Assembly: GCA_013285825.1 (NCBI GenBank)
Contig: JABDGV010000002.1
Coordinates: 36,581 to 100,580, forward strand
Direction: 5' to 3'
Length of the DNA stretch: 64,000 nt
DNA from: Bacteroidota bacterium
GTDB lineage: Bacteria; Chlamydiota; Chlamydiia; Chlamydiales; FEN-1388
The position numbers and the translations under genes are program-made. Below, piece by piece: positions 11,657 through 41,479 of the stretch (the first letter of the stretch is position 1; each line of letters opens with the position of its first letter). The notes under the pieces are model-generated. The model searched no databases. It was not told the origin of the DNA and saw only the letters and a list, made by a program, of their open reading frames with translations.

Positions 11657-13129
11657 TTATCCGACTGAATGCTCAAGCTTGAGTGTTAATAGATTTTTAG
11701 CTTCCTGAGCGAACTCGAAAGGAAGCTCATCGAGAACTTTTTTGCAGAAACCGTTGACAATTAGGTTTACGGCATCTTCAAAAGAAATTCCGCGTGATCT
11801 GAAGTAAAAAAGCTGCTCTTCATTGAGTTTTGAAGTAGAAGCTTCATGCTCCAGCTGGCTGGAAGCGTTGTGGTTTTCGATATAGGGAAAGGTGTTGGCG
11901 GAGCAGCGATCGCCCACTAGCATCGAGTCGCACTGAGTATAATTTCTCGCCCCTTCAGCTTTGCCTACAATCTTAACAAGGCCTCGATAGGTGTTGTGGG
12001 ACTGCTCGGCAGCAATTCCCTTTGAAACTATCGTCGAAGTAGTGTTTTTGCCGATGTGGACCATTTTGGTTCCAGTATCGGCCTGCATAAAACCGTTGGT
12101 GAGGGCGACAGAGTAAAATTCACCGACAGAGTTATCCCCTTTCAAGATGCAGCCTGGGTATTTCCAGGTGATTGCAGCACCAGCTTCAACTTGTGTCCAG
12201 GAGATTTTTGAGGACTCTCCAGCGCAAAGCCCTCGCTTGGTCACGAAGTTATAGACACCGCCCTCTCCAGTCTTGGGATTGCCGGCATACCAGTTTTGAA
12301 TCGTCGAGTATTTAATTTCAGCTCGGTTGTGGGCGACAAGTTCAACGACTGCTGCGTGGAGCTGGTTATTATCAAAGGCGGGCGCTGTGCAGCCCTCTAA
12401 GTAGCTGACGTGGGAGTCATCTTCGGCAATGATGAGCGTTCTCTCAAACTGGCCGCTCTCTTTATCGTTGATGCGGAAATAGGTCGAAAGCTCCATTGGG
12501 CAGCGAACGCCTTTGGGAATGTAGACGAAGGAGCCGTCGGTGAAGACGGCTGAGTTGAGAGCGGCAAAAAAGTTGTCATGAATAGGCACAACCGAAGCCA
12601 TGTATTTTTTAACGAGGTCTGGGTAGGTTTGGATAGCTTCCGAGATGGAGCAGAGAATGACTCCTGCCTCTTTGAGCTTGCTTTGGAATGTGGTGCCTAA
12701 AGAGACCGAGTCAAAAACAACGTCGACTGCGACGTTGACGAGCCGCTTTTGCTCATCGACTGGAATGCCGAGACGCTCGAAGGTTTTCAAAAGTTCAGGT
12801 TCAGCATCTGAGAGCTTATTGAGTAGAGGCTTGTGCTTGGGAGCAGAGTAGTAGGTGATGTTCTGATAGTCGATAGGCCCATAGCGAAGGTTTGCCCAGC
12901 GAGGCTCTTTCATCTCCTTCCACTTGTTAAAAGCTTTGAGACGAAAGTCGAGCATCCAATCGGGTTCATTTTTCTTCTTAGAAAGCGCACGAACGATCTC
13001 TTCGTTTAACCCTTTGGGGAAGGATTCTGTCTCGATATCCGTGACGAATCCATACTTATAGTCGCCGCGGCTATAGTCCTGCCCTTTTGCTTCTGCCAAA
13101 TCTGTAGTATCTGTTAAATCTGCTGCCAC
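11657..13129 (-). CDS. sufB: Fe-S cluster assembly protein SufB
   Basis: [16 protein letters not shown] and QADTGTKM motifs. Confidence 0.97.
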
Positions 13130-13246
13130 AAAAATTCATTAAATTAAAATTGGTACTTATAATAAACGGAATTTGTGTTTGTGACCAGAGATTTAAGTTC
13201 CTTCATAAGATCGACTTTAACAATCCAATGGAGTTTTGCAGAAAGC

Positions 13247-14062
13247 TCATGTGTTTCGATAAAACAGGGCTCGAAGAAACGGTGCGTCCATAGTATATGT
13301 GGGGCCTGAGACAGTGTTGGTAGTGAGGTTGATTTTGGTAATATTAGTTGAGCCTTCATAGGCTATAAGTGCGTATAGTCCATCTGCCGTGATGGAAATT
13401 GCAGTCGGGTTGCTGTTTACAGAAATGGTCGTGCTAACGGTATTGCTGCTTAAGTCGATGACTGAGATGTTGCTTGATCCCATGTTGGGGATATACGCAT
13501 AATTTCCATTGGGGGTAATATCGATGTCCATCGGATTTGTTCCGACAGAAATAGTGGAGCCTGTTACGGTATTTGTGCTCAAATCAATGACTGAGACGTT
13601 ATTATCATCTGCATTAACCACATAGGCATAATCACCGTTCGGTGTAATACGAATACCTTGAGGGTTAGTTCCGACAGAAATGGGAGAGCCCGTTACGGTA
13701 TTTGTGCTCAAATCAATAATTGAGATGTTGTTGTCGCCTGAATTTACCACGTAGCCAGTCGAACTATCAGAAGTAATAGCCATATCTATAGGAGTTGAGC
13801 CGACAGCTATCGACACATTGGTGAGTGTATTGATAGTGAGGTCATAGACGGTGACATCATTTGATCCCGAAGTGAGGATATAGGCCCAATGTCTATTAGG
13901 TGTGTAGGAGATGAGCATGGGGTTAATAGCAGTCTTCTCGAGTAGAGTAGAAACTTGTAAATCCCCTGCTTCAATGTCAGGTGTATTTGTAAGAAGCGCG
14001 CTGGAAACGAGGATGACCGCACTTGCAAAAAGTACATACAGCATTGGTTTAAACAGGTTCAT
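13247..14062 (-). CDS. Short secreted YVTN beta-propeller protein (class A)
   Basis: MNLFKP leader, about five YVTN repeats, ends LFYRNT; lacks the C-terminal domain. Confidence 0.88.
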   Translation of the reverse strand: MNLFKPMLYVLFASAVILVSSALLTNTPDIEAGDLQVSTLLEKTAINPMLISYTPNRHWAYILTSGSNDVTVYDLTINTLTNVSIAVGSTPIDMAITSDSSTGYVVNSGDNNISIIDLSTNTVTGSPISVGTNPQGIRITPNGDYAYVVNADDNNVSVIDLSTNTVTGSTISVGTNPMDIDITPNGNYAYIPNMGSSNISVIDLSSNTVSTTISVNSNPTAISITADGLYALIAYEGSTNITKINLTTNTVSGPTYTMDAPFLRALFYRNT

Positions 14063-14096
14063 ATAAAAGCACCTTCATTAATTTTGCATTCCCTAT

Positions 14097-14125
14097 CCTA
14101 TACTGGGGATAGGGGTTTGTAACAA
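14097..14125 (-). promoter_or_regulatory. Array promoter-like motif TTGTTA-N17-TATAGG
   Basis: One of seven conserved copies, 35 bp upstream of the 14062 start. Confidence 0.6.
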
Positions 14126-14142
14126 TTTTTTTTACTCCAACG

Positions 14143-20610
<6,468 letters not shown>

Positions 20611-20653
20611 CTAAATCGGTTGGTATAAAAACCTTAAAAGATTTTGGCTCTTA

Positions 20654-20682
20654 CCTATAAAGAAGCTGAGTGATTGTAACAA
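20654..20682 (-). promoter_or_regulatory. Array promoter-like motif TTGTTA-N17-TATAGG
   Basis: Conserved copy upstream of the 2144-aa gene. Confidence 0.6.
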
Positions 20683-20759
20683 GTTTTTTTAAATTCTAAC
20701 TCTTGAAATAGGATTCAATGGGAAGGATATTCAAATAGGTCACTCACAATATTGGTCGA

Positions 20760-20835
20760 AAGATCCATGCAAGATCCATGAAAGATCCATGAAAGATCCA
20801 TGAGAGATCAAGGACTGCTCCATCACTGCTCCATT
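20760..20835. repeat. 11-bp tandem repeats: (aagatccatgM)x4 plus one degenerate copy, then (actgctccatY)x2
   Basis: Read directly from the sequence. Confidence 0.85.
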
Positions 20836-20838
20836 AAT

Positions 20839-20877
20839 TAGAAACCCCATTTGCCTTGATGACAAATGGAGTTTCTA
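20839..20877 (-). terminator. Stem-loop downstream of the 20904..21701 gene, probable terminator
   Basis: tagaaaccccatttg ... caaatggagtttcta inverted repeat about 26 bp past the stop codon. Confidence 0.5.
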
Positions 20878-20903
20878 TAAGAGCATGAGCAGTTAAAAAT
20901 TCT

Positions 20904-21701
20904 TTAAGGGTTTCTCATAAAAAGACTTTGTAGCTGTAATCCCACATCAAATGAAGGACCTGACACGCTGTTGTTGGATAGAATGATTTTTGTGGCCATA
21001 GTGGAGCCTTCATAGCCAACAAGTGCATATTTTCCATCTTTTGTGATGAAAATTCTATCAGGGTTAGTGTCTACAGAAATTGAGGAGCCCACAGTATTGT
21101 TGCTAAGTGTGATGATTGAGATATTGTTAGAACCTGTGTTCGTGACATAGGCATAGTTCCCGTTTGGAGTAATCGAAATGTCTGAAGGGGAAGTTCCTAG
21201 AGCGATAGGAGAGCCGGTTACGACATTTGTTCCCAGGTTAATTATAGAGGCAGTGTTGTCGCCTTCATTTACCACATAGGCTAATAGACCGTTAGGAGCA
21301 ATAGCAATACCTTGAGGATTATGTCCTACAGATATGGTTCCTGTGACGGTATTTGTAGCGACATCAATAACTGAGACGTTGTTTGAACCGGAGTTGACTG
21401 TATACACAGTTGTTCCATTTGGGGTGACAGCAATATCTACTGGGGTTGTGCCGACGGCTATGGATACATTTGTGAGAGTGTTTGTGGTGAGGTCATAGAC
21501 AGTGACATTATTCGAGCCGGAAGTGAGGATATAGGCCCAATGACCATCAGGGGTGTAGGTGATAACCATTGGGTTGATGGTTGGCCCTTTAGAGATTAAA
21601 GAGGAAGTTTTTACGGCCTCCTGCCAATTGGTTGGTCCAGCTGCAAAAAGTGAATGCGAGCATGCAACTGCTACAAAAAACATTGGCTTCAATAGGTTCA
21701 T
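20904..21701 (-). CDS. Short secreted YVTN beta-propeller protein (class A)
   Basis: MNLLKP leader, about five YVTN repeats, ends FMRNP. Confidence 0.88.
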   Translation of the reverse strand: MNLLKPMFFVAVACSHSLFAAGPTNWQEAVKTSSLISKGPTINPMVITYTPDGHWAYILTSGSNNVTVYDLTTNTLTNVSIAVGTTPVDIAVTPNGTTVYTVNSGSNNVSVIDVATNTVTGTISVGHNPQGIAIAPNGLLAYVVNEGDNTASIINLGTNVVTGSPIALGTSPSDISITPNGNYAYVTNTGSNNISIITLSNNTVGSSISVDTNPDRIFITKDGKYALVGYEGSTMATKIILSNNSVSGPSFDVGLQLQSLFMRNP

Positions 21702-21730
21702 ATAAAAACACCTTATTTGAGTTATCTCAA

Positions 21731-21759
21731 TCTATATTGATAACAGCGGATTGAGACAA
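21731..21759 (-). promoter_or_regulatory. Array promoter-like motif variant TTGTCT-N17-TATAGA
   Basis: Same spacing and relative position as the other copies. Confidence 0.5.
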
Positions 21760-21765
21760 GTTTTT

Positions 21766-23073
21766 TTAATTTTGCAAGCTCTGCACATCCAGTGGGGTAA
21801 ATGGACTGCGTAGGTTGTTTGAATTGACGGCGCGAACCTTATATTTTGCATGGAGATATCGTCGGTACTTCTTTGACCAGTCATGATCATGAGTATCTTG
21901 TGGATGAAGAGTGTGGATAAAGACAAGGGGGGCGTTGCTCGGAACAATAGCGAGAAGCTGGTCAAATGCAAAAATCTCATAGGCGATGATATTGGAAGAA
22001 ATGCTTGCAAGCCATTCAGCTTTCAATGTGAATTTGCCCTTATGCTGTATGACATTTCCGTTAAATGAAAAAGGTTGAAACAGGGATGAGGATGCAGGAT
22101 GGAAAGGGGGAGCGATAGCCACTCCTACAGGTATCGATCCTACGGGGATAGGGGATCCTGTCACACTGTTCGTGCTGAGGTCAATCACCCCTACTTCATC
22201 TAGGCCTGTATAGGTGACATAAGCAAAAGCTCCATCAGCAGTGATAGCAATTCCGTGAGGCTCACTAAAGAGGGGAAGCAAGATGATTGCTGTTACCATG
22301 TTGGTAGCTGTACTAATAACCTCAACATCATCAGAGTTAAAGTCTGCCACGTACACAAACAGCCCATTAGGAGTGATGGCAAGAGCCAGTGGGTTAATTC
22401 CAACAGTAATCGGCGATCCTACCACCATATTGGTCGTGGTATCTATGACGGACACCGTTCCAGACACATTATTGGCTACATAGGCAAACAGTCCGTTTGG
22501 AGTGATGGCAACAGCCGCTGGGTTAAGCCCAACTGAAATGGGTGATCCTACAACAGTGTTGGTAGCTGTATTTATAACTGTCACATTGTGTGAGCTTGTA
22601 TTAGTTACGTAGGCGTATACCCCATTCGGAGTTGAGCCAATGGCGATACCAACAGGAATAGATCCAACAGGAATGGGCGATCCTACAATAGTATTTGAAG
22701 CTATATCTATGACCGACACGGTATCAGAGAGTTCATTAACTACATAGGCAAACAATCCATCAGGAGTAATGGCTACAGCCGTTGGGACATGTCCAACTGG
22801 GATGGTTGCAATAACCATATCGGAAGCGGTATCTATGACGGATACAGTATTATCACCCCTATTTGGTACGTATACAAATTCCCCATTAGGGGTAATGGCA
22901 AGATACGCTGGGGCTGTTCCTACTGGAATGGGAGATCCCACAACAGTATTGGTGCTGATATCAATGACGCTTACTGTATCATCGCCTTGATTACCCACAT
23001 AAGCAAACGGGGCGGCAAAGAGAGTGTGAGCAGATAATAAAAGTGTGAAGAGAAGAGAGGGTAAAAATTTCAT
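21766..23073 (-). CDS. Secreted YVTN beta-propeller protein with FN3-like C-terminal domain (class B)
   Basis: MKFL signal peptide (ATG 23073), seven YVTN repeats, conserved C-terminal domain. Confidence 0.9.
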   Translation of the reverse strand: MKFLPSLLFTLLLSAHTLFAAPFAYVGNQGDDTVSVIDISTNTVVGSPIPVGTAPAYLAITPNGEFVYVPNRGDNTVSVIDTASDMVIATIPVGHVPTAVAITPDGLFAYVVNELSDTVSVIDIASNTIVGSPIPVGSIPVGIAIGSTPNGVYAYVTNTSSHNVTVINTATNTVVGSPISVGLNPAAVAITPNGLFAYVANNVSGTVSVIDTTTNMVVGSPITVGINPLALAITPNGLFVYVADFNSDDVEVISTATNMVTAIILLPLFSEPHGIAITADGAFAYVTYTGLDEVGVIDLSTNSVTGSPIPVGSIPVGVAIAPPFHPASSSLFQPFSFNGNVIQHKGKFTLKAEWLASISSNIIAYEIFAFDQLLAIVPSNAPLVFIHTLHPQDTHDHDWSKKYRRYLHAKYKVRAVNSNNLRSPFTPLDVQSLQN

Positions 23074-23124
23074 CTGCACACACTCTTTAATCGAATTGAT
23101 AAACGTCGCCACTGAATAAAATTC

Positions 23125-23925
23125 CTATGGGTTTCGTTGGAAAAGGATTTGTAGGACCTCGCTTGATATCATACTCACTGCTGGATTCGACACGCTGTTG
23201 TTTGAGAGGTCTATCTCAGAAGTTGTATTTGAGTTTGCATAAGCTACAAAGGCGGTTTTCCCATTTCTTAGGATGGCAATGGCATTCGGACTGCTGCTTA
23301 CCGCAATCGTGGAAGTAACTGTATTGGTATTGAGGTTGATTATAGAGATGCTATTTGAACCCTTATTTACCACATAGGCAAACGCTCCATTCGGGGTGAT
23401 AGCGATATCGTAGGGAGATGTCCCGACAGGTATGGTTGAAGTGATGGTATTTGAGAGCAAATGGATGACGCAGACGCTGCTGTCGCCGGCATTAACCACA
23501 TAAGCATATTGTCCATCGGGAGTGATAGCAATACCTTGAGGGTTTGTGCCGACAGATATGGTTGAGGTAACTGTATTTGTGGTGAGGTTGATGATTGAGA
23601 GGTTGTTCGAACCAGAATTTACGACATAAGCATACAAGCCATCAGGGGTTATGGCAATATCTACAGGGGTTGTACCAACCGGTATTGTCACATCTGTGAG
23701 TACTGGGATGGAAAGGTCATAGACATAAACACTATTTGATCCTGAAGCGAGTATATAGGCCCATTTTCCCCCAGGGCAGAAGGCAAACATAGTGGGAGTG
23801 ATCGTTCCCCCCTTCTCAAGCAGGTAAGAAACTTGAACATCAAATATTTCACTGTTGGGTGAAGCTGCAAAAAGTGCAGTACCGATTGCAAGAGCTGAAT
23901 AGAGTATTGGCTTCAATAGGTTCAT
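23125..23925 (-). CDS. Short secreted YVTN beta-propeller protein (class A)
   Basis: MNLLKP leader, about five YVTN repeats, ends FQRNP. Confidence 0.88.
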   Translation of the reverse strand: MNLLKPILYSALAIGTALFAASPNSEIFDVQVSYLLEKGGTITPTMFAFCPGGKWAYILASGSNSVYVYDLSIPVLTDVTIPVGTTPVDIAITPDGLYAYVVNSGSNNLSIINLTTNTVTSTISVGTNPQGIAITPDGQYAYVVNAGDSSVCVIHLLSNTITSTIPVGTSPYDIAITPNGAFAYVVNKGSNSISIINLNTNTVTSTIAVSSSPNAIAILRNGKTAFVAYANSNTTSEIDLSNNSVSNPAVSMISSEVLQILFQRNP

Positions 23926-23958
23926 CTAAAAAACCTTGAGTAGAGACTTTGACTCTTA

Positions 23959-23987
23959 CCTATAAAGAAGATGAGTCATTGTAACAA
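23959..23987 (-). promoter_or_regulatory. Array promoter-like motif TTGTTA-N17-TATAGG
   Basis: Conserved copy upstream of the 23925 start. Confidence 0.6.
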
Positions 23988-24030
23988 TATTATTTAATTG
24001 TACAACTTTTGCACTTCCAATAGAGCTTAT

Positions 24031-25938
<1,908 letters not shown>

Positions 25939-26769
25939 CTATGGGTTTCGTTGAAAAAGGGTTTGCAGGACTGATTTTGCATTTTGCAAGGTATGATTTG
26001 ATACTGTGCTGCTCGTCAGGTCAATTTTAGAGTTATGACTCGTAAGGTCTATTTTAGTGGCCATATTTGAGTTTGCATAGCCAACATAAGCATAGAGGCC
26101 ATCTTTCGTGACTAATATAGTATTCGGACTCGTTTCGACAGCAATAGTGGACTCAACGGTATTGTTGCTGAGGTCGATGATTGAGACATTGTTTGAACCC
26201 ATGTTCGCAACGTACGCAGCTGTTCCATCCGAAGTAATCGATAGGTCGTAGGGAGTTGTGCCGACAGGTATGGTCGAGGTAATAGTATTGCTGCTTAAAT
26301 CAATGACTGAAACGGTATTATCGCCCGCATTGGCCACATAGGCAAAATTCCCATTGGGAGTAATGCCAATAGCTTGAGGGTTTGTGCCGACAGCAAAGGT
26401 TGAAATGACGGTATTAGTGCTGATATCGATGATTGAGACCGTGTTATCCCCTGAATTTACCACATAGACAGATGTTCCATCGGGAGTAACTGCGAGGTCC
26501 ACAGGAGTTGTGCCCACGGGTATTGGTACATTAATGAGTACAGGGATAGAGAGTTCATAGATGTAGACACTATTCGATCCGGAAGCAAGTATATAGGCGG
26601 ATCTTTTTCCCGGTGTGAAGGCAAACATAATGGGAGTGATAGTTGGGCCTTTCTCAAATACGTAAGAAGCTTGTAGTTCCGATGGCTGAAGGAGCTCTAT
26701 TTCACTTTTTGCTAAAAGTGTTTGTGCAATTGCAAGAGCTGCATAGAGCGTTGGCTTAACTAGGTTCAT
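25939..26769 (-). CDS. Short secreted YVTN beta-propeller protein (class A)
   Basis: MNLVKP leader, about five YVTN repeats, ends FQRNP. Confidence 0.88.
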   Translation of the reverse strand: MNLVKPTLYAALAIAQTLLAKSEIELLQPSELQASYVFEKGPTITPIMFAFTPGKRSAYILASGSNSVYIYELSIPVLINVPIPVGTTPVDLAVTPDGTSVYVVNSGDNTVSIIDISTNTVISTFAVGTNPQAIGITPNGNFAYVANAGDNTVSVIDLSSNTITSTIPVGTTPYDLSITSDGTAAYVANMGSNNVSIIDLSNNTVESTIAVETSPNTILVTKDGLYAYVGYANSNMATKIDLTSHNSKIDLTSSTVSNHTLQNAKSVLQTLFQRNP

Positions 26770-26803
26770 CTACAAAAACCTTAAATAGAGACTATATCTT
26801 CTA

Positions 26804-26833
26804 CCTATAGTGAAGAAACACTTTTGTAAACAA
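26804..26833 (-). promoter_or_regulatory. Array promoter-like motif variant TTGTTT-N18-TATAGG
   Basis: Conserved copy upstream of the 26769 start. Confidence 0.5.
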
Positions 26834-26839
26834 GGTTTT

Positions 26840-28680
<1,841 letters not shown>

Positions 28681-28684
<4 letters not shown>

Positions 28685-28719
28685 ATGCACACACTCTTTG
28701 TTGGTTTAAACAGGTTCAT
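28681..28719 (-). pseudogene. 12-codon remnant of a deleted class A gene ([12 protein letters not shown])
   Basis: Starts with the class A leader MNLFKP and joins directly to the aaagagtgtgtgca sequence that precedes class B starts; its TGA overlaps the next ATG. Confidence 0.7.
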
Positions 28720-28751
28720 CTACAAAACCTCAAAACAGACTTTGACTTTTA

Positions 28752-28780
28752 CCCATACGGAAGATGAGTATTGATAACAA
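28752..28780 (-). promoter_or_regulatory. Array promoter-like motif TTGTTA-N17-TATGGG
   Basis: Conserved copy upstream of the class A remnant. Confidence 0.55.
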
Positions 28781-28786
28781 TATTTT

Positions 28787-30073
28787 TTAATTTAGAAAGC
28801 TCTGTATACCTAATTGGGTAAATTCACTTCGTGCGTTGTTTGAATCGACCGCCCGTACTTTGTATTTCGTGTTGAGATACTTTTTGAACTTCTTTTCCCA
28901 ATGGCTTCTGTTGGTATGGCGGGTATGAAGGGTTTTTTTAAAGACTAGCGGTTTTGAACTGGGGATGGTTGCAAGAAGCTTGTCAAATGCAAAAATTTCA
29001 TAGGCAACGATATTTGGGGAATTGCTTGGAAGCCATTCTGCTTTTAATTTGTACTTGCCATGATGCTTGATGACTTTGCCGTGAAATTGGAGGGGTTGAA
29101 ACAGGAAAGGAGCGATGGCAATGCCGAAAGGCGAGCTTCCGACAAGGATAGGCGAGCCTGAAGCACTGTTTGATGTCAGATCAATTATTCCCACTTCATT
29201 GAGGCTAAAATAGGAGACATAAGCAATTTTTCCATTTGCTGTGATGGCGATCTCAATGGGAAAACTGCCAGCAGGAAGGAGAATAGGAGAGCCTACTATC
29301 ATATTGGTCGAAAGATCAATAATAGATAAATCGTCCGATGCGCCATTGGTCACGTAGGCAAATTTGCCATCAGGAGTGATTGCCATATCATGAGATCCGG
29401 CCCCGAGTAATATAGGCGATCCTGTAACCATATTGGTTGAAAGATCAATAACCGAAATAGTGGCTGCATTAGTATTGATTACATAGGCAAACAGTCCGTT
29501 GGGAGTTATAGCGATATCATCGGGACCTGCTCCAACTGAGATTGGAGATCCAGTCACACTATTGCTGGAGAGATCTATAACGGATACCGTATTGGCTCCA
29601 AAATTCGTTACATAGGCAAAACTGCCATTAGGTATTATGGCGATGCTAAAGGGTAGAAGTCCTACAGAAATAGGCGACCCAGTAACAGTATTTGTCGAAA
29701 GATCAATAACCGAGACAGTGCTCGAATCACTATTTACAACATAGGCAAACTTTCCGTTGGGAGTAATAGCAATACTTTGCGGAAATACCCCAACTCCAAT
29801 GGGAGAGCCTAAGGTAGTATTGGTCGCAAGGTCAATGACGGAAACGTTGTTGGACACAGCATTTACCACATAAGCAAACTGCCCATCAGGAGTGATCGCG
29901 ATCGATAGAGGATCCGTTCCAACGGGAATGGGAGAGCCAACTACCGTATTAGTGCTGGTATCGATGACCGAGACAGTATTATCTCCAGAATTGGCAACAT
30001 AGGCAAATGGGGCTGCAGAGAGGGTTTGTGCAGAAAAGAGGATTGCACAAATGAGAGAGGATAAAAATTTCAT
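28787..30073 (-). CDS. Secreted YVTN beta-propeller protein with FN3-like C-terminal domain (class B)
   Basis: MKFL leader, seven YVTN repeats, conserved tail. Confidence 0.9.
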   Translation of the reverse strand: MKFLSSLICAILFSAQTLSAAPFAYVANSGDNTVSVIDTSTNTVVGSPIPVGTDPLSIAITPDGQFAYVVNAVSNNVSVIDLATNTTLGSPIGVGVFPQSIAITPNGKFAYVVNSDSSTVSVIDLSTNTVTGSPISVGLLPFSIAIIPNGSFAYVTNFGANTVSVIDLSSNSVTGSPISVGAGPDDIAITPNGLFAYVINTNAATISVIDLSTNMVTGSPILLGAGSHDMAITPDGKFAYVTNGASDDLSIIDLSTNMIVGSPILLPAGSFPIEIAITANGKIAYVSYFSLNEVGIIDLTSNSASGSPILVGSSPFGIAIAPFLFQPLQFHGKVIKHHGKYKLKAEWLPSNSPNIVAYEIFAFDKLLATIPSSKPLVFKKTLHTRHTNRSHWEKKFKKYLNTKYKVRAVDSNNARSEFTQLGIQSFLN

Positions 30074-31350
30074 ATTTGCACATCCAATTTGGTAAATTCA
30101 CTTCGAGTATTGTTTGAGTTCACCGCCCGCACCTTATATTTTGAGTTGAGATATTGCTGATACTTTTCGCGCCAATGATGAGAATGGGTGTTGTGGGGAT
30201 GAAGGGTTTTCTCAAATGCAAGCGGTGCGTTGCTTGGAACAATCGCAATCAGCTGGTCAAAGGCGAAAATTTCATAGGCGATGATGTTTGAGGAGATGCT
30301 TTGAAGCCATTGTGCTTTGAGTTTGAATTTGCCCTGCTGGCTGACGATTTTCCCGCTGAATGAAAAGGGTTGAAAGACTGGAGAGACAGAAGGGGGGATA
30401 AAGGTGGTGGCAATTCCAGTAGGTAAATTTCCGACAAGGATGGTTGTTCCTGACACTGTATTGGTGCTGAGATCGATTATTCCCACTTCATTCAAGTTAC
30501 CATACGTTACATAGCCATAGTTTCCATCTGCTGTGATGGCGATGTTTTCAGGAGTGCTGCTGGCTGGAAGCGGGATGGTTGCTGCTACACTGTTGGTGGC
30601 AGTATCAATGACCGATACGGTGGTTGAAGACTGATTGAGTACATAGGCAAATTGCCCGTTAGGGGTAATGGCAATACCATACGGCTGGAGTTCAACTGGA
30701 ATGGTTGCAGTAACTGTGTTGGTATTGAGGTTGATGACAGAGACATTATTTGAGCCAATATTTGTCACGTAGGCGAAATTTCCATTCGGCGTGATGGCAA
30801 GCTGGTTTGGTTGATTTCCAACGGGGATGGTGGCGGTAATAGTGTTGGTAGAGGTGTCAATAACTGATACTGTGCTTGTTGAAACATTTGTCACGTAGGC
30901 GAATTGTCCATTCGGTGTGATGGCGATGCCTGTAGGATATCCCCCAAATCCCGTTATGGTTGTAGTGACTGTGTTGGTATTGAGATTAATGACAGTAACC
31001 GTGTTGGGAGTTTGATTTACCACATATGCAAACTGTCCATTGGGAGTAATGGCAATAGACAATGCATCAAATACGCCTGTTATGGTTGCAGTAACAGTGT
31101 TGGTAGCCGTATCAATAGCCATGACAGAGCCGTTAAATAAATTTGTTACATACACATAATTTCCATCTGGCGTCAAGGCAACGTCTTGCGGACTATGGCC
31201 AACGGGAATGGTTGCGACAACCATATTTGTGCTGATATCAATGACACTGACGGTATTATCTACCGTATTTGTTACATAAGCAAATGGCGCTGCAAAGAGG
31301 GTTTGAGCAGCCAAAAGAGTTGCACAAAGGAGCGATGCTATGAATTTCAT
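30070..31350 (-). CDS. Secreted YVTN beta-propeller protein with FN3-like C-terminal domain (class B)
   Basis: MKFI leader, seven YVTN repeats, conserved tail. Confidence 0.9.
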   Translation of the reverse strand: MKFIASLLCATLLAAQTLFAAPFAYVTNTVDNTVSVIDISTNMVVATIPVGHSPQDVALTPDGNYVYVTNLFNGSVMAIDTATNTVTATITGVFDALSIAITPNGQFAYVVNQTPNTVTVINLNTNTVTTTITGFGGYPTGIAITPNGQFAYVTNVSTSTVSVIDTSTNTITATIPVGNQPNQLAITPNGNFAYVTNIGSNNVSVINLNTNTVTATIPVELQPYGIAITPNGQFAYVLNQSSTTVSVIDTATNSVAATIPLPASSTPENIAITADGNYGYVTYGNLNEVGIIDLSTNTVSGTTILVGNLPTGIATTFIPPSVSPVFQPFSFSGKIVSQQGKFKLKAQWLQSISSNIIAYEIFAFDQLIAIVPSNAPLAFEKTLHPHNTHSHHWREKYQQYLNSKYKVRAVNSNNTRSEFTKLDVQI

Positions 31351-31358
31351 AAAAACGC

Positions 31359-32639
31359 CTAAAACAGTTGTACGTTTAAATTGGTAAATTCACTTCGGCT
31401 GTTGTTTGAGTTTACTGCCCGAACTTTATATTTTCCGTTGAGATAGCTCTGATACATTTCTCGCCAATGATGTGAATGAGTGTTGTGGGGATGAAGGGTT
31501 TTCACAAATGCAAGCGGTGCGTTGCTTGGGACAATGGCAAGCAGCTGGTCGAATGCGAAAATTTCATAGGCGATGATATTGGAGGAGATGCTTGCAAGCC
31601 ACTCTGCTTTCAACTGGAATTTGCCCTTCTGGTTGACGATTTTGCCGCTGAATGAAAAGGGTTGAAGCACTGTAGGGTTTTGAAAGGGAATATAGTTGAT
31701 GCAAATTCCATTAGGTAAATTTCCGACAAGGATGGTTGTCCCTGACACTGTATTGGTGCTGAGATCGATTATTCCCACTTCATTCAAGTTACCATACGTT
31801 ACATAGCCATAGTTACCATCTGCTGTGATGGCGATGTTTTCAGGAGTGCTGCTGGCTGGAAGCGGGATGGTTGCTACTACACTGTTGGTTGCAGTATCAA
31901 TGACCGATACAGTGTTTGAAAACTGATTGAGTATATAGGCAAATTGCCCATTAGGGGTAATGGCAATGCCAAACGGCTGGAGGCCAACTGTAATGGTTGC
32001 AATAACAGTGTTGGTATTGAGGTTGATGACGGAGACATTATTTGAGCCAATATTTGTCACGTAGGCGAAATTTCCATTAGGCGTGATGGCAATCTCGGAT
32101 GGTTGACTTCCAACCGGGATGGAGTCTGTAATAGTGTTAGTAGAGAGGTTAATGACTGATACTGTGTTTGACAAGCCGTTTGCCACGTAGGCGAAATTTC
32201 CATTAGGGGTGATGGCGATCCCTGTGGGATATCCCCCAAATCCCGTTATGGTTGTAGTGATCATATTGCTGTTGATATTAATGACAGATACCGTGTTGCC
32301 AGCGGGATTTGTCACATACGCAAACTCTCCATTGGGCGTGATGGCAATATACGCTGGCTGAGATACATCTGTAATGGTTGCAATAACAGTGTTGGTAGCG
32401 GTATCAATAGCCATGATGGATGTGCCGTAGGTATTTGCTACATACACATATCTTTTATCAGGGGTCAAGGCGATGCCTTGCGGATTAGCTCCAACGGGAA
32501 TGGTTGCCACCACCATATTAGTGCTGATATCAATGACACTTACTGTTTCGCTCAGTGTCGTTACATATGCAAACGGCGCTGCAAAAAGGGTTTGAGCAGC
32601 CAAAAGGGTTGCACAAATGAACGATGCTCTGAATTTCAT
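31359..32639 (-). CDS. Secreted YVTN beta-propeller protein with FN3-like C-terminal domain (class B)
   Basis: Close paralogue of 30070..31350 (both 426 aa). Confidence 0.9.
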   Translation of the reverse strand: MKFRASFICATLLAAQTLFAAPFAYVTTLSETVSVIDISTNMVVATIPVGANPQGIALTPDKRYVYVANTYGTSIMAIDTATNTVIATITDVSQPAYIAITPNGEFAYVTNPAGNTVSVININSNMITTTITGFGGYPTGIAITPNGNFAYVANGLSNTVSVINLSTNTITDSIPVGSQPSEIAITPNGNFAYVTNIGSNNVSVINLNTNTVIATITVGLQPFGIAITPNGQFAYILNQFSNTVSVIDTATNSVVATIPLPASSTPENIAITADGNYGYVTYGNLNEVGIIDLSTNTVSGTTILVGNLPNGICINYIPFQNPTVLQPFSFSGKIVNQKGKFQLKAEWLASISSNIIAYEIFAFDQLLAIVPSNAPLAFVKTLHPHNTHSHHWREMYQSYLNGKYKVRAVNSNNSRSEFTNLNVQLF

Positions 32640-32648
32640 ATAAACTCC

Positions 32649-33935
32649 TCAAAAACCTTGAACATTTAAATTAGTAAATCCGCTTCGGCTGTTGTTTGAG
32701 CTTACGGCCCGCACCTTATATTTTGCGTTGAGATAGCGTTGGTATTTTTCGCGCCAATGGTGCTTGTGTGTATCTGGCCGTGGAAGAGCAATATCAAAGT
32801 TGAGCGGGGCGTTGCTCGGGACAATGGAAATGAGCTGGTCAAACCCAAAAATCTCATAGGCGATGATGTTGGAGGAGGGGCTTGCAGGCCATTGAGCTTT
32901 TAGTTTGAACTTGCCGTGATGTTTGACAATTTTGCCAGTGAATGAAAAGGGTTGAAACAGTGAAGGGTTTGGAAAGGGAATATAGGTGATGGCAATTCCG
33001 AAAGGAGTGTTTCCTACAGGGATAGTAGTACCTGTCAACGTATTGGAGCTTAAGTCGACAATGGCTACTTCAGCAAGATTAGAATAGGTTACATAAGCAT
33101 ATTTCCCATCGGGAGTGATGGCGATTCCTTCAGGGTCGCTTCCGGAGGGAAGCGGGATAGTGGTTGTTATCGTCTGAGAGGTAGTATCAAGTAGGGAAAT
33201 GAAACTAGAGGTAATTGTGCTAACGAGGACATAGGCATATTGTCCGCCGGGACTAACGGCTATAGCTACTGGAAGTCCACCGACTCCAACGTTTGAAGTA
33301 ACCATATTGGTATTGAGATCAAGGACGGAAACGGTAGAGGAGTTGCCATTTCCCACATATGCAAAAAGGCCATTTGGGTTTACGGCAATTGGAGCAGGTC
33401 CAGCTTCTACTGGGATGGTATCAACCACCATGTTGCTGCTGATATTAATTACGCTGACTGTACCATCGCTGAAATTTGTTACGTATGCAAACTGACCATT
33501 GGGCGTGATGGCAACACCCTCAGGAGTTCCTCCAACTGCTATGGGAGGTCCTATAACAGTATTGGTAGAGATATCGATGACGGACACATTATTTGACTCA
33601 CCATTTACCACGTAGGCAAATTGCCCGTTAGGAGTAATGGAAATGCCTGCAGGATTAGTTCCAACTGTAATGGTAGCAACCACCATATCGGTACTCGCAT
33701 CAATGACACTGACGGAATTAGTTCCGTTATTTACCACGTAGGCAAATTGCCCATTAGGAGTGACGGCAATATATTCAGGTGAACTTCCAACTGGAACGGT
33801 GGCGACTACCAGGTTGGTACTGATATCGATGACACTGACGGTATCATCACTCAAATTTGCCACATAGGCAAATGGGGATGCAGAAAGGGTTTGAGCTACG
33901 AAGATAAGACCTATTAGCGAGAGTACAAATTTCAT
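32649..33935 (-). CDS. Secreted YVTN beta-propeller protein with FN3-like C-terminal domain (class B)
   Basis: MKFV leader, seven YVTN repeats, conserved tail. Confidence 0.9.
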   Translation of the reverse strand: MKFVLSLIGLIFVAQTLSASPFAYVANLSDDTVSVIDISTNLVVATVPVGSSPEYIAVTPNGQFAYVVNNGTNSVSVIDASTDMVVATITVGTNPAGISITPNGQFAYVVNGESNNVSVIDISTNTVIGPPIAVGGTPEGVAITPNGQFAYVTNFSDGTVSVINISSNMVVDTIPVEAGPAPIAVNPNGLFAYVGNGNSSTVSVLDLNTNMVTSNVGVGGLPVAIAVSPGGQYAYVLVSTITSSFISLLDTTSQTITTTIPLPSGSDPEGIAITPDGKYAYVTYSNLAEVAIVDLSSNTLTGTTIPVGNTPFGIAITYIPFPNPSLFQPFSFTGKIVKHHGKFKLKAQWPASPSSNIIAYEIFGFDQLISIVPSNAPLNFDIALPRPDTHKHHWREKYQRYLNAKYKVRAVSSNNSRSGFTNLNVQGF

Positions 33936-33944
33936 ATAAACTCC

Positions 33945-35255
33945 TCAAAAATCTTGAACATTTAAATTGGTAAATCCACTTCGGCTGTTGTTTGAGTTCA
34001 CAGCCCGAACCCTATATTTTGTGTTGAGATAGTTCTGATACTTTTCGAGCCAATGATGTGAATGGGTATTGTGCGGATGAAGAGTCCTTTCAAAGACAAG
34101 CGGAGAGCCGCTCGGAACGATTGCAATAAGCTGGTCAAAGGCAAAAATTTCATAGGCAATGATGTTGGAAGAGGGGCTTGCAGGCCACTCTGCTTTGAGG
34201 GTGAATGTGCCATTCCGGTTGACGATTTTTCCGCTAAATGAAAAGGGTTGAAATAGCGGAGGCGGTGGAGGTGGAGGAGGAGAGTAAGGAGGGGCAATGG
34301 CAATGCCGAAAGGAACGGTTCCTACAGTAATGGGTGAACCAGTCACCATATTGGTGCTTAAGTCGATAATGCCTACTTCATTTTGATCAGAATAGGTTAC
34401 ATAAGCATATTTCCCATCGGGAGTGATAGCGATTCCTTCAGGGTCGCTTATGGAGGGGAGCGGGATGGTGGTTGTTACAGTCTGAGATGTTGTATTAATA
34501 ACGGAAATGAATTGAGTGCTAGGAGAGGAAAAAACTGCAATATAGGCATATTGTCCGTTGGGACTTACAGCATTACCTCCAGATTCTGGAAATCCTCCGA
34601 CATCAATGTTTGTAGTAACGAAATTGGTATTGAGATCAATAACTGATACGGTAGTGGTGCCAGAATTTCCCACATACGCAAAAAGGCCATTTGGGGTAAT
34701 GGAAATTGAACTAGGTGCAGCTTCTACTGGAATGGTATCAACCACCGTGTTGCTGCTGGTATCAATGACGCTGACGGTATTATCTGCTGAATTTGTTACG
34801 TATACAAACTGTCCATTGGGGGTTATGGCAATACCCTCAGGAGCTCCTCCAACGCTGATGGGAGGTCCTATAACAGTATTGGTAGAGATGTCAATGACTG
34901 ACACCCTATTTAAGCTAAAACTTGCCACGTAGGCAAATTGCCCATTAGGAGTGATGGCAATGCCTGTGGGACTTGATTCAACTGTAATCGTAGCGACTAC
35001 CATATTGGTAGACGCATCAATGACACTGACGGTATTAGTTCCGTTATTTGTCACGTAGGCAAATTGTCCGTTGGGAGTGACGGCTATAGCTTGTGGTGAA
35101 TTTCCAACTGGAACAGTGGCGACTACCAGGTTGGTACTGATATCGATGACGCTGACGGTATTATCAACCAAATTTGCCACATAGGCAAAGGGAGCGGCAG
35201 TGAGGGTTTGTGTAGCGAACAGGATTGCAAAAACGAGCGATAATAGAAATTTCAT
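33945..35255 (-). CDS. Secreted YVTN beta-propeller protein with poly-Pro linker and FN3-like C-terminal domain (class B)
   Basis: MKFL leader (ATG 35255), seven YVTN repeats, SPPPPPPP linker, conserved tail. Confidence 0.9.
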   Translation of the reverse strand: MKFLLSLVFAILFATQTLTAAPFAYVANLVDNTVSVIDISTNLVVATVPVGNSPQAIAVTPNGQFAYVTNNGTNTVSVIDASTNMVVATITVESSPTGIAITPNGQFAYVASFSLNRVSVIDISTNTVIGPPISVGGAPEGIAITPNGQFVYVTNSADNTVSVIDTSSNTVVDTIPVEAAPSSISITPNGLFAYVGNSGTTTVSVIDLNTNFVTTNIDVGGFPESGGNAVSPNGQYAYIAVFSSPSTQFISVINTTSQTVTTTIPLPSISDPEGIAITPDGKYAYVTYSDQNEVGIIDLSTNMVTGSPITVGTVPFGIAIAPPYSPPPPPPPPLFQPFSFSGKIVNRNGTFTLKAEWPASPSSNIIAYEIFAFDQLIAIVPSGSPLVFERTLHPHNTHSHHWLEKYQNYLNTKYRVRAVNSNNSRSGFTNLNVQDF

Positions 35256-35285
35256 GCACAAGACCCTAGATACTTATGATACTTA

Positions 35286-35314
35286 CCTATAAGCAGGAAA
35301 TGTGTTTGTAACAA
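35286..35314 (-). promoter_or_regulatory. Array promoter-like motif TTGTTA-N17-TATAGG
   Basis: Heads the run of five closely spaced class B genes. Confidence 0.6.
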
Positions 35315-40174: not shown

Positions 40175-41479
40175 TTATTCCGGCACCACATCCAAAAAGA
40201 CAAATTCGCTTCTCTGATTGCTCGAGTTTACTGCGCGAACCTTATACTTTTCGTGTAGATATTTCTGGTATTTGCGGAACCAATGGTGAGAGAAGGGATC
40301 CTGGGGATGGAGAGGTTTTTCAAAAACAAGAGGAGCGTTACTTGGCACAATTGCGAGAAGCTGGTCAAAGGCAAAGATCTCATAGGATATGACATCCGTT
40401 GACACGCTTGGAAGCCATTGGCTTTTTAATTTAAACTTGCCGTGTTGATGAAGAATTTTTCCGCTAAATTGGAAGGGAGGAAACGGGGTTAGATTTGAAT
40501 TTCCCTGATGAGGCGCAAAGGCTATATACTGGGGGGATAATCCAACAAGAATCGAAGGCACGACTACCGTATTGGTGCTGATATCAATAACTGAAACGTT
40601 GTTAGAGTTTTGATTGACAACATAAGCAAATTTGCCATCAGGAGAGATCGCAATGCCTAGCGGAATTACTCCAACAGGAATTGAAGGGACAATGACTGTA
40701 TTCGTACTTGTAGCTATTACGGTAACATCATTAGAGAGGGAATTTGTCACATAGGCAAATTTGCCATCAAAAGTGATCGCTATGCCTAACGGATCTGTTC
40801 CAACAGGAATTGAGGGGACAGTGACTGTATTCGTGCTCGTATCTATTACTGTAACATCATTAGAAACTTCATTTGTCACATAGGCAAATTTGCCATCTGG
40901 GGTAATTGCTATGCCTATCGGAGCTGTTCCAACAGGAATTGAGGGGACAGTGACTGTATTCGTACTTGTATCTATTACTGAAACATCATTAGAGCCGTTA
41001 TTTGTCACATAGGCAAATTTGCCATCAGGAGTGAATGCTATACCTTCTGGGTTGGTTCCGACAAGTATTGAGGGGACAGTGACGGTATTGGTTGTGGTAT
41101 CAATAACTGTAACGTTGTTAGAGACGTCACTTGGCACATAGGCAAATTTGCCATTAGGGGTGATTGCTATGCCCCCATCCGGATCTGTTCCAACAGTAAT
41201 TGAGGGTACAATCACTGTGTTCGTTGTGAGGTCCACAACACACACGCTAGCCAAACCTTCATTTACAACATAGGCAAATTTTCCGCCAGGAGTAATGGCA
41301 ATGCCTATTGGACCGCTTCCAACTGGAAGAGCAATAGGCGAGCCCACAACTGTATTGGTGGCCGTATCAATAATCGATATGGTATCGGATCCGTTATTAG
41401 TCACATACCCAAAAGGGGCAGCGTAAAGTGACCCTGTAATACAGACGAAAGAAAAAAAGATAGATTGTACGAGTCTCAT
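40175..41479 (-). CDS. Orphan secreted YVTN beta-propeller protein with FN3-like C-terminal domain (class B)
   Basis: Signal peptide, seven highly homogeneous YVTN repeats, same tail as the array genes. Confidence 0.9.
   Translation of the reverse strand: MRLVQSIFFSFVCITGSLYAAPFGYVTNNGSDTISIIDTATNTVVGSPIALPVGSGPIGIAITPGGKFAYVVNEGLASVCVVDLTTNTVIVPSITVGTDPDGGIAITPNGKFAYVPSDVSNNVTVIDTTTNTVTVPSILVGTNPEGIAFTPDGKFAYVTNNGSNDVSVIDTSTNTVTVPSIPVGTAPIGIAITPDGKFAYVTNEVSNDVTVIDTSTNTVTVPSIPVGTDPLGIAITFDGKFAYVTNSLSNDVTVIATSTNTVIVPSIPVGVIPLGIAISPDGKFAYVVNQNSNNVSVIDISTNTVVVPSILVGLSPQYIAFAPHQGNSNLTPFPPFQFSGKILHQHGKFKLKSQWLPSVSTDVISYEIFAFDQLLAIVPSNAPLVFEKPLHPQDPFSHHWFRKYQKYLHEKYKVRAVNSSNQRSEFVFLDVVPE

Follow-up and report, generated by a model that had tools for sequence, protein, structure and literature searches.

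The window analysed here is a stretch of 64,000 nt of contig JABDGV010000002.1 (assembly GCA_013285825.1), and all positions given below are positions within it. Between 13247 and 35314 lies a 22-kb array of 13 intact genes, on the minus strand throughout, with one further gene of the same kind, also on the minus strand, at 40175–41479. These genes fall into two classes. Class A (n = 4) encodes a signal peptide and five blades of a YVTN propeller, without a tail; class B (n = 10, including the detached copy, B10) encodes a signal peptide, a seven-blade YVTN propeller and a C-terminal domain of ~105 aa. An earlier note on this DNA had described co-oriented, secreted YVTN genes of two classes, and gene and domain scans, together with signal-peptide-like N-termini, confirm this for the 13 genes of the array and for B10. 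The features by which that note had told the classes apart are also borne out: class A proteins (given as ~270 aa) are 265–276 aa long, start with MNLxKP and end in RNP or RNT in all four cases, and have five blade units each by HMM; class B proteins mostly start with MKF (8/10, the others being B1 with MYKKF and B10 with MRLV), have seven-blade propellers and share a tail, and the optional G-X-T stalk is found in B1, B3 and B4.

Array layout and transcription units

Read in the direction of transcription, the array begins with a promoter-like motif at 35285–35314, 5' of B9 (33945–35261, likely Met at 35255), which leads a run of class B genes formed by B8 (32649–33935, 428 aa), B7 (31359–32639, 426 aa), B6 (30070–31350, 426 aa) and B5 (28787–30073, 428 aa, without collagen). 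The next motif (28751–28780) precedes a class A remnant at 28681–28719—a mini reading frame of 12 codons, the TGA of which overlaps the ATG of the following gene (ATGA)—and B4 (26840–28690, likely Met at 28684). Two units are intact promoter–A–B bicistrons, and these are the only ones: A4 (25939–26769, 276 aa) followed by B3 (24031–25926, a 631-aa ORF), with a motif at 26803–26833, and A3 (23125–23925, 266 aa) followed by B2 (21766–23112, likely Met [MKF] at 23073, without collagen), with a motif at 23958–23987. A2 (20904–21701, 265 aa; motif at 21730–21759) and A1 (13247–14062, 271 aa; motif at 14096–14125, one mismatch to the pattern) have no B gene behind them within their own units, and no B remnants were found in the spacers after either. 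B1 (14143–20577, 2144 aa) comprises a signal peptide, three seven-blade propellers with G-X-T runs between them, a collagen run of ~930 residues and an FN3-like tail. Its motif (20653–20682) is followed by a degenerate class A start, ACCAACCGATTT, at 20613–20624, itself preceded by an A-type leader, TAAGGTTTTTAT, and probably the remnant of a lost A gene. The four class A genes that the earlier note had counted thus stand, and the single remnant it had listed becomes two (before B4 and before B1). B10, between PP2C and topA genes, has no array motif upstream.

The motif, TTGTYWHMA-N10-18-TATRGRT, has six matches in the window versus 0.05 expected, and none of 100 shuffles reaches six; this window statistic is post hoc, because the pattern was drawn up from copies already seen. 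The seventh copy is the one before A1. A loosened pattern has nine matches in the whole genome, seven of them inside the array; a copy at C1:22576 falls inside coding sequence and has probably arisen by chance. That every unit carries the same upstream motif, as had been claimed, is correct for seven units (A1, B1, A2, A3, A4, remnant plus B4, and B9), not for each gene: B2, B3 and B5–B8 have no motif of their own and lie close behind the preceding gene (gaps of −4 to 96 bases). The motif looks like a sigma-70 promoter and agrees with the consensus at only 8/12 positions, which is why a generic sigma-70 and terminator scan of 13000–32900, with counts not above shuffles, did not detect it. Around the −10-like element of A1 and A2, perfect 8-bp inverted repeats of differing sequence were seen by eye; an RNA or DNA hairpin at this element was considered and dropped, as RNAalifold predicted no pair on the seven aligned leaders.

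Propellers, stalks and tails

YVTN repeats (TIGR02276, cut-off 27.85 bits) were recognised at 78.5–211 bits in all six proteins scanned (A1, A2, B2, B3, B7 and B10). A blade HMM built from B10, the seven blades of which are unusually similar to one another, counts seven units in each class B propeller, 21 in B1 and five in each class A protein. The three B1 propellers are distinct sequences, with 53–54% mutual identity. Taken whole, the mature proteins are acidic (pI 4.1–6.2) and the tails basic (pI 9.1–10.2), and the proteins contain 0–3 cysteines each.

The class A model is an open arc matching five blades of the solved structure 1l0q (Foldseek E 3.6e-20, 33% identity; Z 27.3, rmsd 2.0 over 225 residues), and a ring of seven does not occur in it; it also matches 6r60_A (Z 22.5, rmsd 2.7, 195/199 residues aligned). 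Class A blades have a mean mutual identity of 37–41%. Of these, the last alone has an identifiable counterpart, B blade 7, the others being generic, and a terminal truncation and an internal deletion therefore look alike. With dN/dS of 0.26–0.28 between A pairs, class A genes are under purifying selection.

The tail ends all ten class B proteins. That of B7 (31359–31688), which served as the query, was modelled by AlphaFold with a pLDDT of 93 as seven strands and one helix, the helix lying between the fifth and sixth strands. In a wide structural search, the 50 best rows were mostly FN3 domains (Z 10.5 to 8.2), led by 2w1n (Z 10.5, rmsd 3.2, 91 residues aligned), 2gee (Z 9.3) and 3mpc (Z 9.2); Foldseek gave weak matches (best E 4.6e-4), and a protein language-model atlas returned unnamed or FN3-bearing clusters only, with scores of 0.88–0.91. 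As modelled, then, the tail is a basic, seven-strand FN3 beta-sandwich. Sequence does not place it there: PF00041 matches 1/19 tails, at E 0.22, and the B7 query has no Pfam family at E ≤ 1.

Between head and tail, B1, B3 and B4 carry 337, 60 and 56 Gly-X-Y triplets, respectively, of which 326, 53 and 52 have threonine as the Y residue (G-X-Thr in 431/453 overall). B1 and B3 were scored against PF01391 (gathering cut-off 27.2 bits), giving 425.9 bits (E 1e-130) and 84 bits (E 6e-24), and B4 was assessed by direct triplet count. The tails of the three collagen-bearing genes form a clade of their own (support 100/99). In a search for glycosyltransferase or hydroxylase genes near the collagen genes, the ten ORFs of at least 200 aa scanned between 44.7 and 60.2 kb proved to be ParB, VWA, GlgC-type, MFS, MORN and unknowns.

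Distribution and insertion site

The closest relatives of the TopA protein encoded in the window are from Chlamydiota MAGs (54–63% identity), which supports the chlamydial origin that the earlier note had supposed. In a genome of the same genus (G001), the flanking gene order is kept and the whole array is missing: sufB and a PBP gene are 890 bp apart there, without A or B remnants below E 0.1 in the gap, and PP2C and topA are 82 bp apart. The array is thus a lineage-specific insertion that arose within one genus. Conserved synteny of B10 with topA was ruled out by 57 chlamydial topA loci, of which none has a tail-bearing ORF and three have a YVTN ORF.

The tail is found far more widely. Among 1.84 billion representatives, it has 1356 matches at E ≤ 1e-3 and 292 at E ≤ 1e-10; 98 of the best 150 are single full-length matches, and in 90 of these 98 the match stops no more than 10 residues short of the C-terminus. 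Seventy such tail-bearing proteins are at least 400 aa long and contain PKD (41/70), lactonase/YVTN propeller (30/70) and IPT/TIG (26/70) domains. In the loci fetched from relatives, the tail is C-terminal in 9/9 matches. It is a module confined strictly to the C-terminus, and the larger family that bears it consists mostly of IPT-YVTN-PKD-tail proteins. A tail HMM (E ≤ 1e-5) finds it in 109/400 genomes of the order and in 15/22 of the same family, and in two genomes (G022 and G354) proteins that combine the tail with other heads are encoded in tandem. NCBI names were looked up for ten relatives, and one, the sole organism-labelled member, is a ‘putative surface layer protein [Chlamydiia bacterium]’. 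We did not find this exported chlamydial tail-bearing set, typically IPT-propeller-PKD-tail, described in the literature searched.

A collagen run is absent from all 70 tail-bearing relatives scanned, and the stalk is therefore, among tail-bearing proteins, peculiar to this genome. Collagen-like repeats occur in 63/201 genomes of the order and in all 11 sampled genomes of the family; such widespread chlamydial collagen-like genes were likewise not found described in the literature searched. Two class A-specific peptide patterns have no confirmed relative in a genome collection of 185,579 species, and no full-length A-like protein is among the 120 best matches listed.

Interpretation and comparison with known systems

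We lean towards reading the array as a family of modular binding proteins, exported by Sec, that is specific to this lineage of environmental chlamydia and was amplified in tandem. The N-terminal, acidic, seven-bladed YVTN propeller would be a variable ligand-binding head, and the basic FN3-fold tail would attach the protein to the cell envelope, which is negatively charged, or direct it to that site. In B1, B3 and B4, trimers of the G-X-Thr run between them would form a rigid stalk, ~50 nm long in B3 and B4 and, if the assembled length is right, up to ~270–290 nm in B1, which would keep the heads at a distance from the cell, much as in BclA, Scl or Lcl fibres; the runs could instead be a flexible, perhaps glycosylated linker and not a triple helix. 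The architecture—acidic head, optional G-X-T collagen stalk and common end-domain—supports the head-stalk-base protein that the earlier note had seen in class B. Heads diverge faster than tails (dN/dS in the two youngest pairs 0.50 and 0.63 for heads, and 0.21 and 0.18 for tails), and the array is therefore a repertoire of differing heads on one common base. The ancestral unit may have consisted of promoter, class A gene and class B gene; units would then have been duplicated, with A subsequently lost in some (B4 and B1) and B lost in others (A2 and A1), and plain B genes amplified separately (B9 to B5). Class A would be an offshoot of the same propeller that has five blades, lacks the tail and has been retained by selection.

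A Sec signal brings a protein only as far as the periplasm, and passage across the outer membrane, anchoring of the tail to the envelope, assembly into trimers, binding of ligands and interaction with hosts are all predictions. Two secretin-family genes are present, with scores under the GspD cut-off. Proteins of the chlamydial outer membrane complex are cysteine-rich, unlike those of the array. It is conceivable, if unlikely in our estimate, that the products form no surface fibres and act in soluble form, in the periplasm or after secretion, as binding proteins or lactonase-like enzymes; the FN3 domain would then be a mere spacer and the G-X-T run a flexible linker. Many YVTN/lactonase-type propellers are periplasmic, to judge by their family names (YncE, hydrazine synthase beta, NosZ-type and PQQ-associated), a spacer is the usual role of an FN3 domain, and in the cysteine-poor translations we could see neither a membrane anchor nor a lipobox nor a sorting signal of known type. 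However, all equivalog enzyme models (NCBIfam) score far under their cut-offs, the closest relative of solved structure, 1l0q, belongs to an S-layer, and a collagen run of ~930 residues, or three propellers per chain, would be hard to accommodate in the periplasm; nor would a neutral spacer be expected to be strictly C-terminal, basic and better conserved than the heads. The length of that run itself depends on the assembly, and B1 might be chimeric or wrong in repeat length, its repeats having been mis-joined from a metagenome. One public DNA sequencing run, possibly the source sample, contains this DNA (no public RNA run with it was found). In contigs of that run, 14.9–18.1 kb is covered by short pieces only, such that the exact length of the B1 collagen is without independent support; 26/53 placed contig pieces fit two positions, one contig offers an alternative joint by linking 21800 back to 17303, and loose ends occur at 17346 and 18274. 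Depth differences among the contigs of the run are not interpretable as copy number. We nevertheless regard an artefact as improbable: both collagen-to-propeller junctions within B1 are in frame, with a common YVFP linker and without stop codons, promoters or signal peptides, and its propellers are mutually distinct. Moreover, the remaining 13 genes, 44–81% identical over heads and tails, would be unaffected by it.

The earlier note had further proposed that class A is a partner of class B—a chaperone, cap or co-subunit—in a two-component system. In such a system, the open five-blade arc of A might, for example, dock on B. Several observations are in keeping with this: A lies directly upstream of B in the two intact promoter–A–B units, A is under purifying selection, it is modelled as an open 5-of-7 arc, the edges of which are exposed, and the B heads adjoining A genes form one clade (support 91/97). 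As an obligate partnership, the proposal is not supported. B5–B10 (6/10 B genes) lack an A altogether and have never had one next to them, two units kept B intact after the loss of A, and two A genes stand without a following B. Outside this genome, the class A motifs are missing from the 185,579-species collection, tail-bearing YVTN proteins are common in related genomes without A, and no short propeller gene is present among the ORFs of at least 200 aa in the tail-bearing loci of nine relatives (flanks of ~1.5 kb). B homologues elsewhere are thus unlinked to A, an outcome that the note had said would count against it if predicted and measured interaction were lacking as well, and which therefore tells against it in part. 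A complex prediction for A3 and B2 (mature chains, with alignments) scored 0.00 and 0.00, which is evidence neither way. A dedicated partnership is accordingly doubtful, although the shared transcription unit of A and B in two cases, together with the purifying selection acting on A, leaves room for an interaction that may be facultative. Rather than a two-protein machine, the array proteins most likely form a variable collection of binding fibres that are secreted or displayed on the surface, and class A is most likely a soluble, unanchored relative, which may self-associate.

Environmental chlamydiae live as obligate intracellular bacteria in protists and animals; to our knowledge, host attachment in chlamydiae outside the pathogenic genera is largely unknown. 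As a family of modular binding proteins, the locus is a candidate attachment repertoire of ten differing heads on one base, three of them on collagen-like stalks, with functions that are predicted. A bolder version, on which we would place little weight, makes the tail a C-terminal display signal of the chlamydial lineage that directs proteins to the cell surface by a route not recognised before, B1, B3 and B4 trimeric collagen fibres of 50 to nearly 300 nm, with propeller heads at their tips, on the infectious stage that would promote uptake by protists, and class A oligomeric 5-of-7 propellers. Fibrils of giant amoeba viruses promote uptake by the host; we know of no fibres in the chlamydial phylum, and of incomplete propellers acting as oligomers, so far, only in engineered fragments. 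As a natural five-blade derivative of a seven-blade propeller, class A could serve to test whether incomplete propellers act as oligomers.

Of such engineered fragments, an eLife 2019 report (PDB 6r60; PMC6805158) describes, among its results, five-blade pieces of seven-blade WD40 propellers that are homodimers in solution. According to its model, class A likewise consists of five blades of a seven-blade family and lacks the closing strand; the engineered fragments differ in being designed, with identical WD40 blades, whereas class A is natural, of YVTN type and has diverged blades.

The tail invites comparison with the type IX secretion CTD, a C-terminal sorting or anchor domain of exported proteins. 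Both are folded beta-sandwiches of ~100 residues at the extreme C-terminus of many exported proteins with differing heads. The whole proteins matched no Por secretion-tail model, however (NCBIfam, E ≤ 0.01), and an SprA search had no match in this 75%-complete genome, control genomes having given no signal either. For the propeller, the best structure match, obtained from the class A and not the class B model, is the archaeal S-layer YVTN+PKD protein 1l0q, a likeness extended by the PKD domains of the tail-bearing relatives and by the surface-layer annotation of one of them. In contrast to 1l0q, the seven window proteins scanned have no PKD family and carry collagen and an FN3-like tail instead.

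The closest overall likeness is to BclA of the Bacillus exosporium, Scl1/Scl2 of Streptococcus and Lcl of Legionella, which are exported and possess, besides a globular domain, an end that serves for attachment and a Gly-X-Y stalk that varies in length; BclA has threonine-rich G-X-T repeats, as here. With the models for Scl1, Scl2 and Lcl (NF038330, NF038329 and NF046116), B3 reaches 98.2, 79.2 and 77.3 bits, through its collagen part only and far short of all three family cut-offs (400, 325 and 500 bits). The array proteins differ from these systems in having a YVTN propeller head in place of a C1q-like or V domain, a basic FN3-fold base and no LPXTG, three heads in one chain (in one member) and a chlamydial host.

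Gene classes and transcription units

The array of two classes of YVTN genes described in the earlier note is right in substance because the evidence from open reading frames, domains, blades, and triplets agrees; the observation as a whole is confirmed, with corrections. Positions 13247-35314 contain thirteen open reading frames that are intact and lie on the minus strand throughout; a fourteenth is at 40175-41479 (B10). The four class A genes are A1 (13247-14062), A2 (20904-21701), A3 (23125-23925), and A4 (25939-26769), likewise on the minus strand. Their products (265-276 aa, 54-63% pairwise identity) begin with MNLxKP and a hydrophobic stretch with an A-x-A-like end, and finish in LFxRNP or RNT. 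The ten class B genes (B1-B10, eight with an MKF start) encode a signal-peptide-like N-terminus, followed by FAYV, a propeller, and a C-terminal domain of ~105 residues (the tail), which is common to all ten in copies that are 44-80% identical.

Pfam and NCBIfam both assign the propellers to the YVTN/lactonase-type family: the six window proteins scanned score 78-211 bits against TIGR02276 (cut-off 27.85), and in the NCBIfam scan of window propellers all enzyme-level equivalog models remain far under their cut-offs. A blade profile derived from B10 counts seven units per class B propeller and five per class A protein, with 21 units, i.e. three propellers, in B1 (14143-20577). B10 stands out for the similarity among its blades (63% mean and 86% maximum identity, vs 44-57% mean in other class B propellers), suggesting recent amplification or homogenization of blades inside the gene. 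Gly-X-Y triplets number 337 in B1 (as assembled), 60 in B3, and 56 in B4, and the Y residue is threonine in 326, 53, and 52, respectively; PF01391 matches B1 and B3, the two of these three proteins that were scanned.

Each unit had been said to carry the same upstream motif. In this motif, TTGTTACAA comes after an A-rich tract and is separated by 13 bases from TATAGGT (alternatively parsed as TTGTTA, 17 bases, and TATAGG). The motif lies 29-34 bases upstream of five starts (A1, A2, A3, A4, and a class A remnant preceding B4), 30 bases upstream of B9, and 76 bases upstream of B1. The pattern has six matches within the window vs 0.05 expected, and the seventh copy differs from it by one mismatch; the array holds seven of the nine genome-wide matches to a slightly looser pattern, and one of the other two falls within a coding region. 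These statistics are descriptive only, since the pattern was composed after the copies had been seen. Since a ribosome site of the AAGG type separates the motif from the ATG, a sigma-70-type promoter is the simplest reading, although just 8 of 12 consensus positions are fitted; a generic promoter scan did not pick up the array motif, and no conserved RNA structure was predicted around it.

In transcription order on the minus strand, the motif (P) heads seven units: P-B9-B8-B7-B6-B5, P-(A remnant)-B4, P-A4-B3, P-A3-B2, P-A2, P-(degenerate A start)-B1, and P-A1 followed by sufB. The claim thus holds for units, but several class B genes sit inside units without a motif of their own. The single class A remnant reported before becomes two. 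The one before B4 (28681-28719, minus strand) spans 12 codons, ends in a TGA that overlaps the ATG of B4 (ATGA), and could serve as a coupled leader ORF; upstream of B1, an A-type leader is kept with a mutated start codon, and this degenerate start is probably what is left of a class A gene. Given the unit layout and the two remnants, the ancestral module was probably promoter, A, and B, with A afterwards lost from two modules and B from two others. A2 and B1 are separated by a spacer of 326 bp in which an 11-base CATGGATCTTT-like unit occurs as four tandem copies (20759-20802, minus strand).

The source organism is an environmental chlamydia. The closest relatives of the neighboring TopA are metagenome-assembled genomes at 54-63% identity, most of them labeled Chlamydiae, Chlamydiota, Parachlamydiales, Rhabdochlamydia, Waddliaceae, or Simkania, and the next group, from other phyla, is at 44-48%. 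A same-genus genome (94% complete) has the same flanking gene order as around the array. There, sufB and the penicillin-binding-protein gene are 890 bp apart, around a small membrane-protein frame, and PP2C and topA are 82 bp apart; no traces of A or B are seen, and a class A query returned zero propeller matches in that genome. At the site corresponding to the array (locus L101, 5682-6570), the small frame encodes a hydrophobic, membrane-like protein; the window does not have this frame. As the relative keeps the flanks without A or B, the array and B10 are either gains of the window's lineage or losses in the relative.

All close paralogues in the window's own genome lie inside the window; the rest of the genome has just two further proteins with such parts, a YVTN protein without a tail and an IPT-plus-tail protein, both encoded on contig C1. 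An exported 560-aa protein on that contig (~211428-213100, minus strand) has, by eye, a repeat-rich head and an IPT/TIG-like segment, and its FN3-like tail is without the inserted helix. The window additionally encodes an 851-aa protein (57644-60199, plus strand) that consists for the most part of MORN-variant repeats (PF07661, E 3e-48); at a relative's locus (L005), an ORF rich in MORN-like repeats by eye adjoins a tail-bearing gene.

Class A fold and relation to class B

The AlphaFold model of A2 has five four-stranded blades (pLDDT 79.7 overall and >90 in the core; pTM 0.81). It overlays 1l0q, an archaeal S-layer propeller, along five of the seven blades of that structure (Foldseek: rmsd 1.7, 214 columns; Z 27.3, rmsd 2.0, 225 residues in the wide search), and on this overlay class A is predicted to be an open arc rather than a closed five-blade ring, although the modeling alignment has only four rows and the model may be biased toward the parental geometry. 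The model also matches 6r60 (Z 22.5, 195 of 199 residues), a crystal structure showing two five-blade fragments engineered from a WD40 propeller of seven blades; the paper on it describes such fragments as homodimers in solution with a fold unseen in natural proteins (PMC6805158). Class A proteins have neither a closing strand nor a tail, and their last blade resembles blade 7 of class B, the other blades being generic. The genes are functional, because all four have intact frames at 54-63% identity and dN/dS values of 0.26-0.28. The class A motifs had no confirmed relative in a collection of 185,579 species, and the best 120 of 2780 matches from a search of 5.8 billion proteins include no full-length A-like protein, all being longer proteins with coverage of at most 95%.

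The earlier note cast class A as a partner of class B (chaperone, cap, or co-subunit), a role that we consider unlikely. Two intact A-B bicistrons (A4-B3 and A3-B2) speak for it, as do the selection acting on class A and the modeled open arc, which would invite an interaction. Against obligate partnership, however, stand six class B genes without any A, two that outlived the loss of their A, two class A genes without a following B, and the lack of A throughout the wider tail-bearing family. The interpretation offered at the time is therefore supported in part, for the layout of class B but not for class A as an obligate partner.

Class B architecture and the tail domain

Class B proteins were proposed to be built as head, stalk, and base. 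The order of parts, with the propeller first and the collagen run directly before the tail (in B1, the longest of its runs), suits a C-terminal base with heads outward; part order and domains fit the proposal, and attachment to the envelope by the tail is presumed. A collagen triple helix rises ~0.29 nm per residue. If triple-helical, the B3 and B4 stalks would each measure ~50 nm and the C-terminal run of B1 (residues 1106-2037 as assembled) ~270 nm. In the tail tree, the three genes with collagen runs make up a clade of their own (support 100/99), and the heads of B2, B3, and B4 group with the third B1 propeller (91/97). B2 looks like a head of this clade on the other group's tail because the head and tail trees place it differently. 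In the two youngest gene pairs, dN/dS is 0.50 for heads vs 0.21 for tails and 0.63 vs 0.18, as expected if a repertoire of binding heads shared one constant base.

Contigs from the one public run containing this DNA, which may be the source sample, cover 14.9-18.1 kb in short pieces only, many fitting two places, and one contig joins 21800 back to 17303, a different joint, so that the repeat number of B1 is that of this assembly alone. Loose ends occur at the sufB-A1 boundary (13203-13248) and at 17346; strain variants and repeat-induced assembly branching are both possible sources of these ends and of the joint at 17303. The collagen-to-propeller junctions of B1 are in frame and have a common YVFP linker without a signal peptide, which argues that its multi-head design is real.

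Collagen-like genes (PF01391) are common in this lineage: of the genomes sampled, 63 of 201 from the order have them, as does every one of the 11 from the family. Frames of up to 1919 aa occur in the same-genus genome, and contigs C13 and C7 of the window's own genome have further copies. In a single gene run of a related genome (L106, 9240-12860), a gene for a collagen-like signal-peptide protein (525 aa, 147 G-X-Y residues) precedes two tail-less seven-blade YVTN genes (326 and 332 aa); the propeller-collagen association therefore recurs as separate genes.

Sequence models give the 19 tails no name, with an fn3 match in one of them (E 0.22). The AlphaFold model (pLDDT 93) has seven strands and one inserted helix, and most of its matches in an exhaustive comparison of structures are FN3 domains (Z 8.2 at rank 50), led by 2w1n (Z 10.5, rmsd 3.2, 91 residues), 5jip (9.8), 2gee (9.3), and 3mpc (9.2); Foldseek supports an FN3 fold weakly. 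The tails are basic (pI 9.1-10.2) and the proteins otherwise acidic (pI 4.1-6.2).

A profile of the window tails plus nine from related genomes matched 1356 representatives among 1.84 billion proteins at E<=1e-3 (292 at E<=1e-10). Among the best 150 matches, 98 are single and full-length, ending within 10 residues of the C-terminus in 90 cases and within three in 77; the other 52, multi-stretch matches in very long proteins, are read as generic FN3 arrays. The single-tail proteins of at least 400 aa (n = 70) include PKD (41), lactonase/YVTN propeller (30), and IPT/TIG (26) domains, and collagen in none of the 70 scanned. One of ten tail proteins looked up is named ‘putative surface layer protein [Chlamydiia bacterium]’ at NCBI. 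The tail is matched in 109 of 400 genomes of the order (E<=1e-5), most strongly in the window's own family, and ends a non-propeller protein in the same-genus genome. Elsewhere, tandem ~930-aa beta-helix-like exported proteins (L103-L104; G022 contig C2, 362-396 kb) end in this FN3-like tail, as do three tandem exported proteins of 557-580 aa (L105, G354). The tail is thus a promiscuous module that always sits at the C-terminus of exported proteins in this chlamydial lineage; its position, charge, and conservation suggest a role in anchoring them to the envelope or sorting them there.

Comparison with known systems

Literature searches found no paper on YVTN proteins in chlamydia and no account of the family, though chlamydial pangenome gene-family tables could mention such proteins; searches on collagen-like proteins and chlamydial genera gave incidental hits only. 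All functional statements on the array proteins are predictions: the array is predicted to encode collagen-like surface or secreted fiber proteins with an undescribed head-base combination, in a lineage-specific setting that includes an unusual five-blade side family, class A. By mode of working, class B would be closest to the bacterial collagen-like surface proteins BclA, Scl1/2, and Lcl, from which it differs in head and base; with 98, 79, and 77 bits against cut-offs of 400, 325, and 500 for Scl1, Scl2, and Lcl, it is not a member. By descent, the S-layer-type YVTN+PKD architecture stands closest to the propeller; tail-bearing relatives have kept this architecture and the window genes have lost it.
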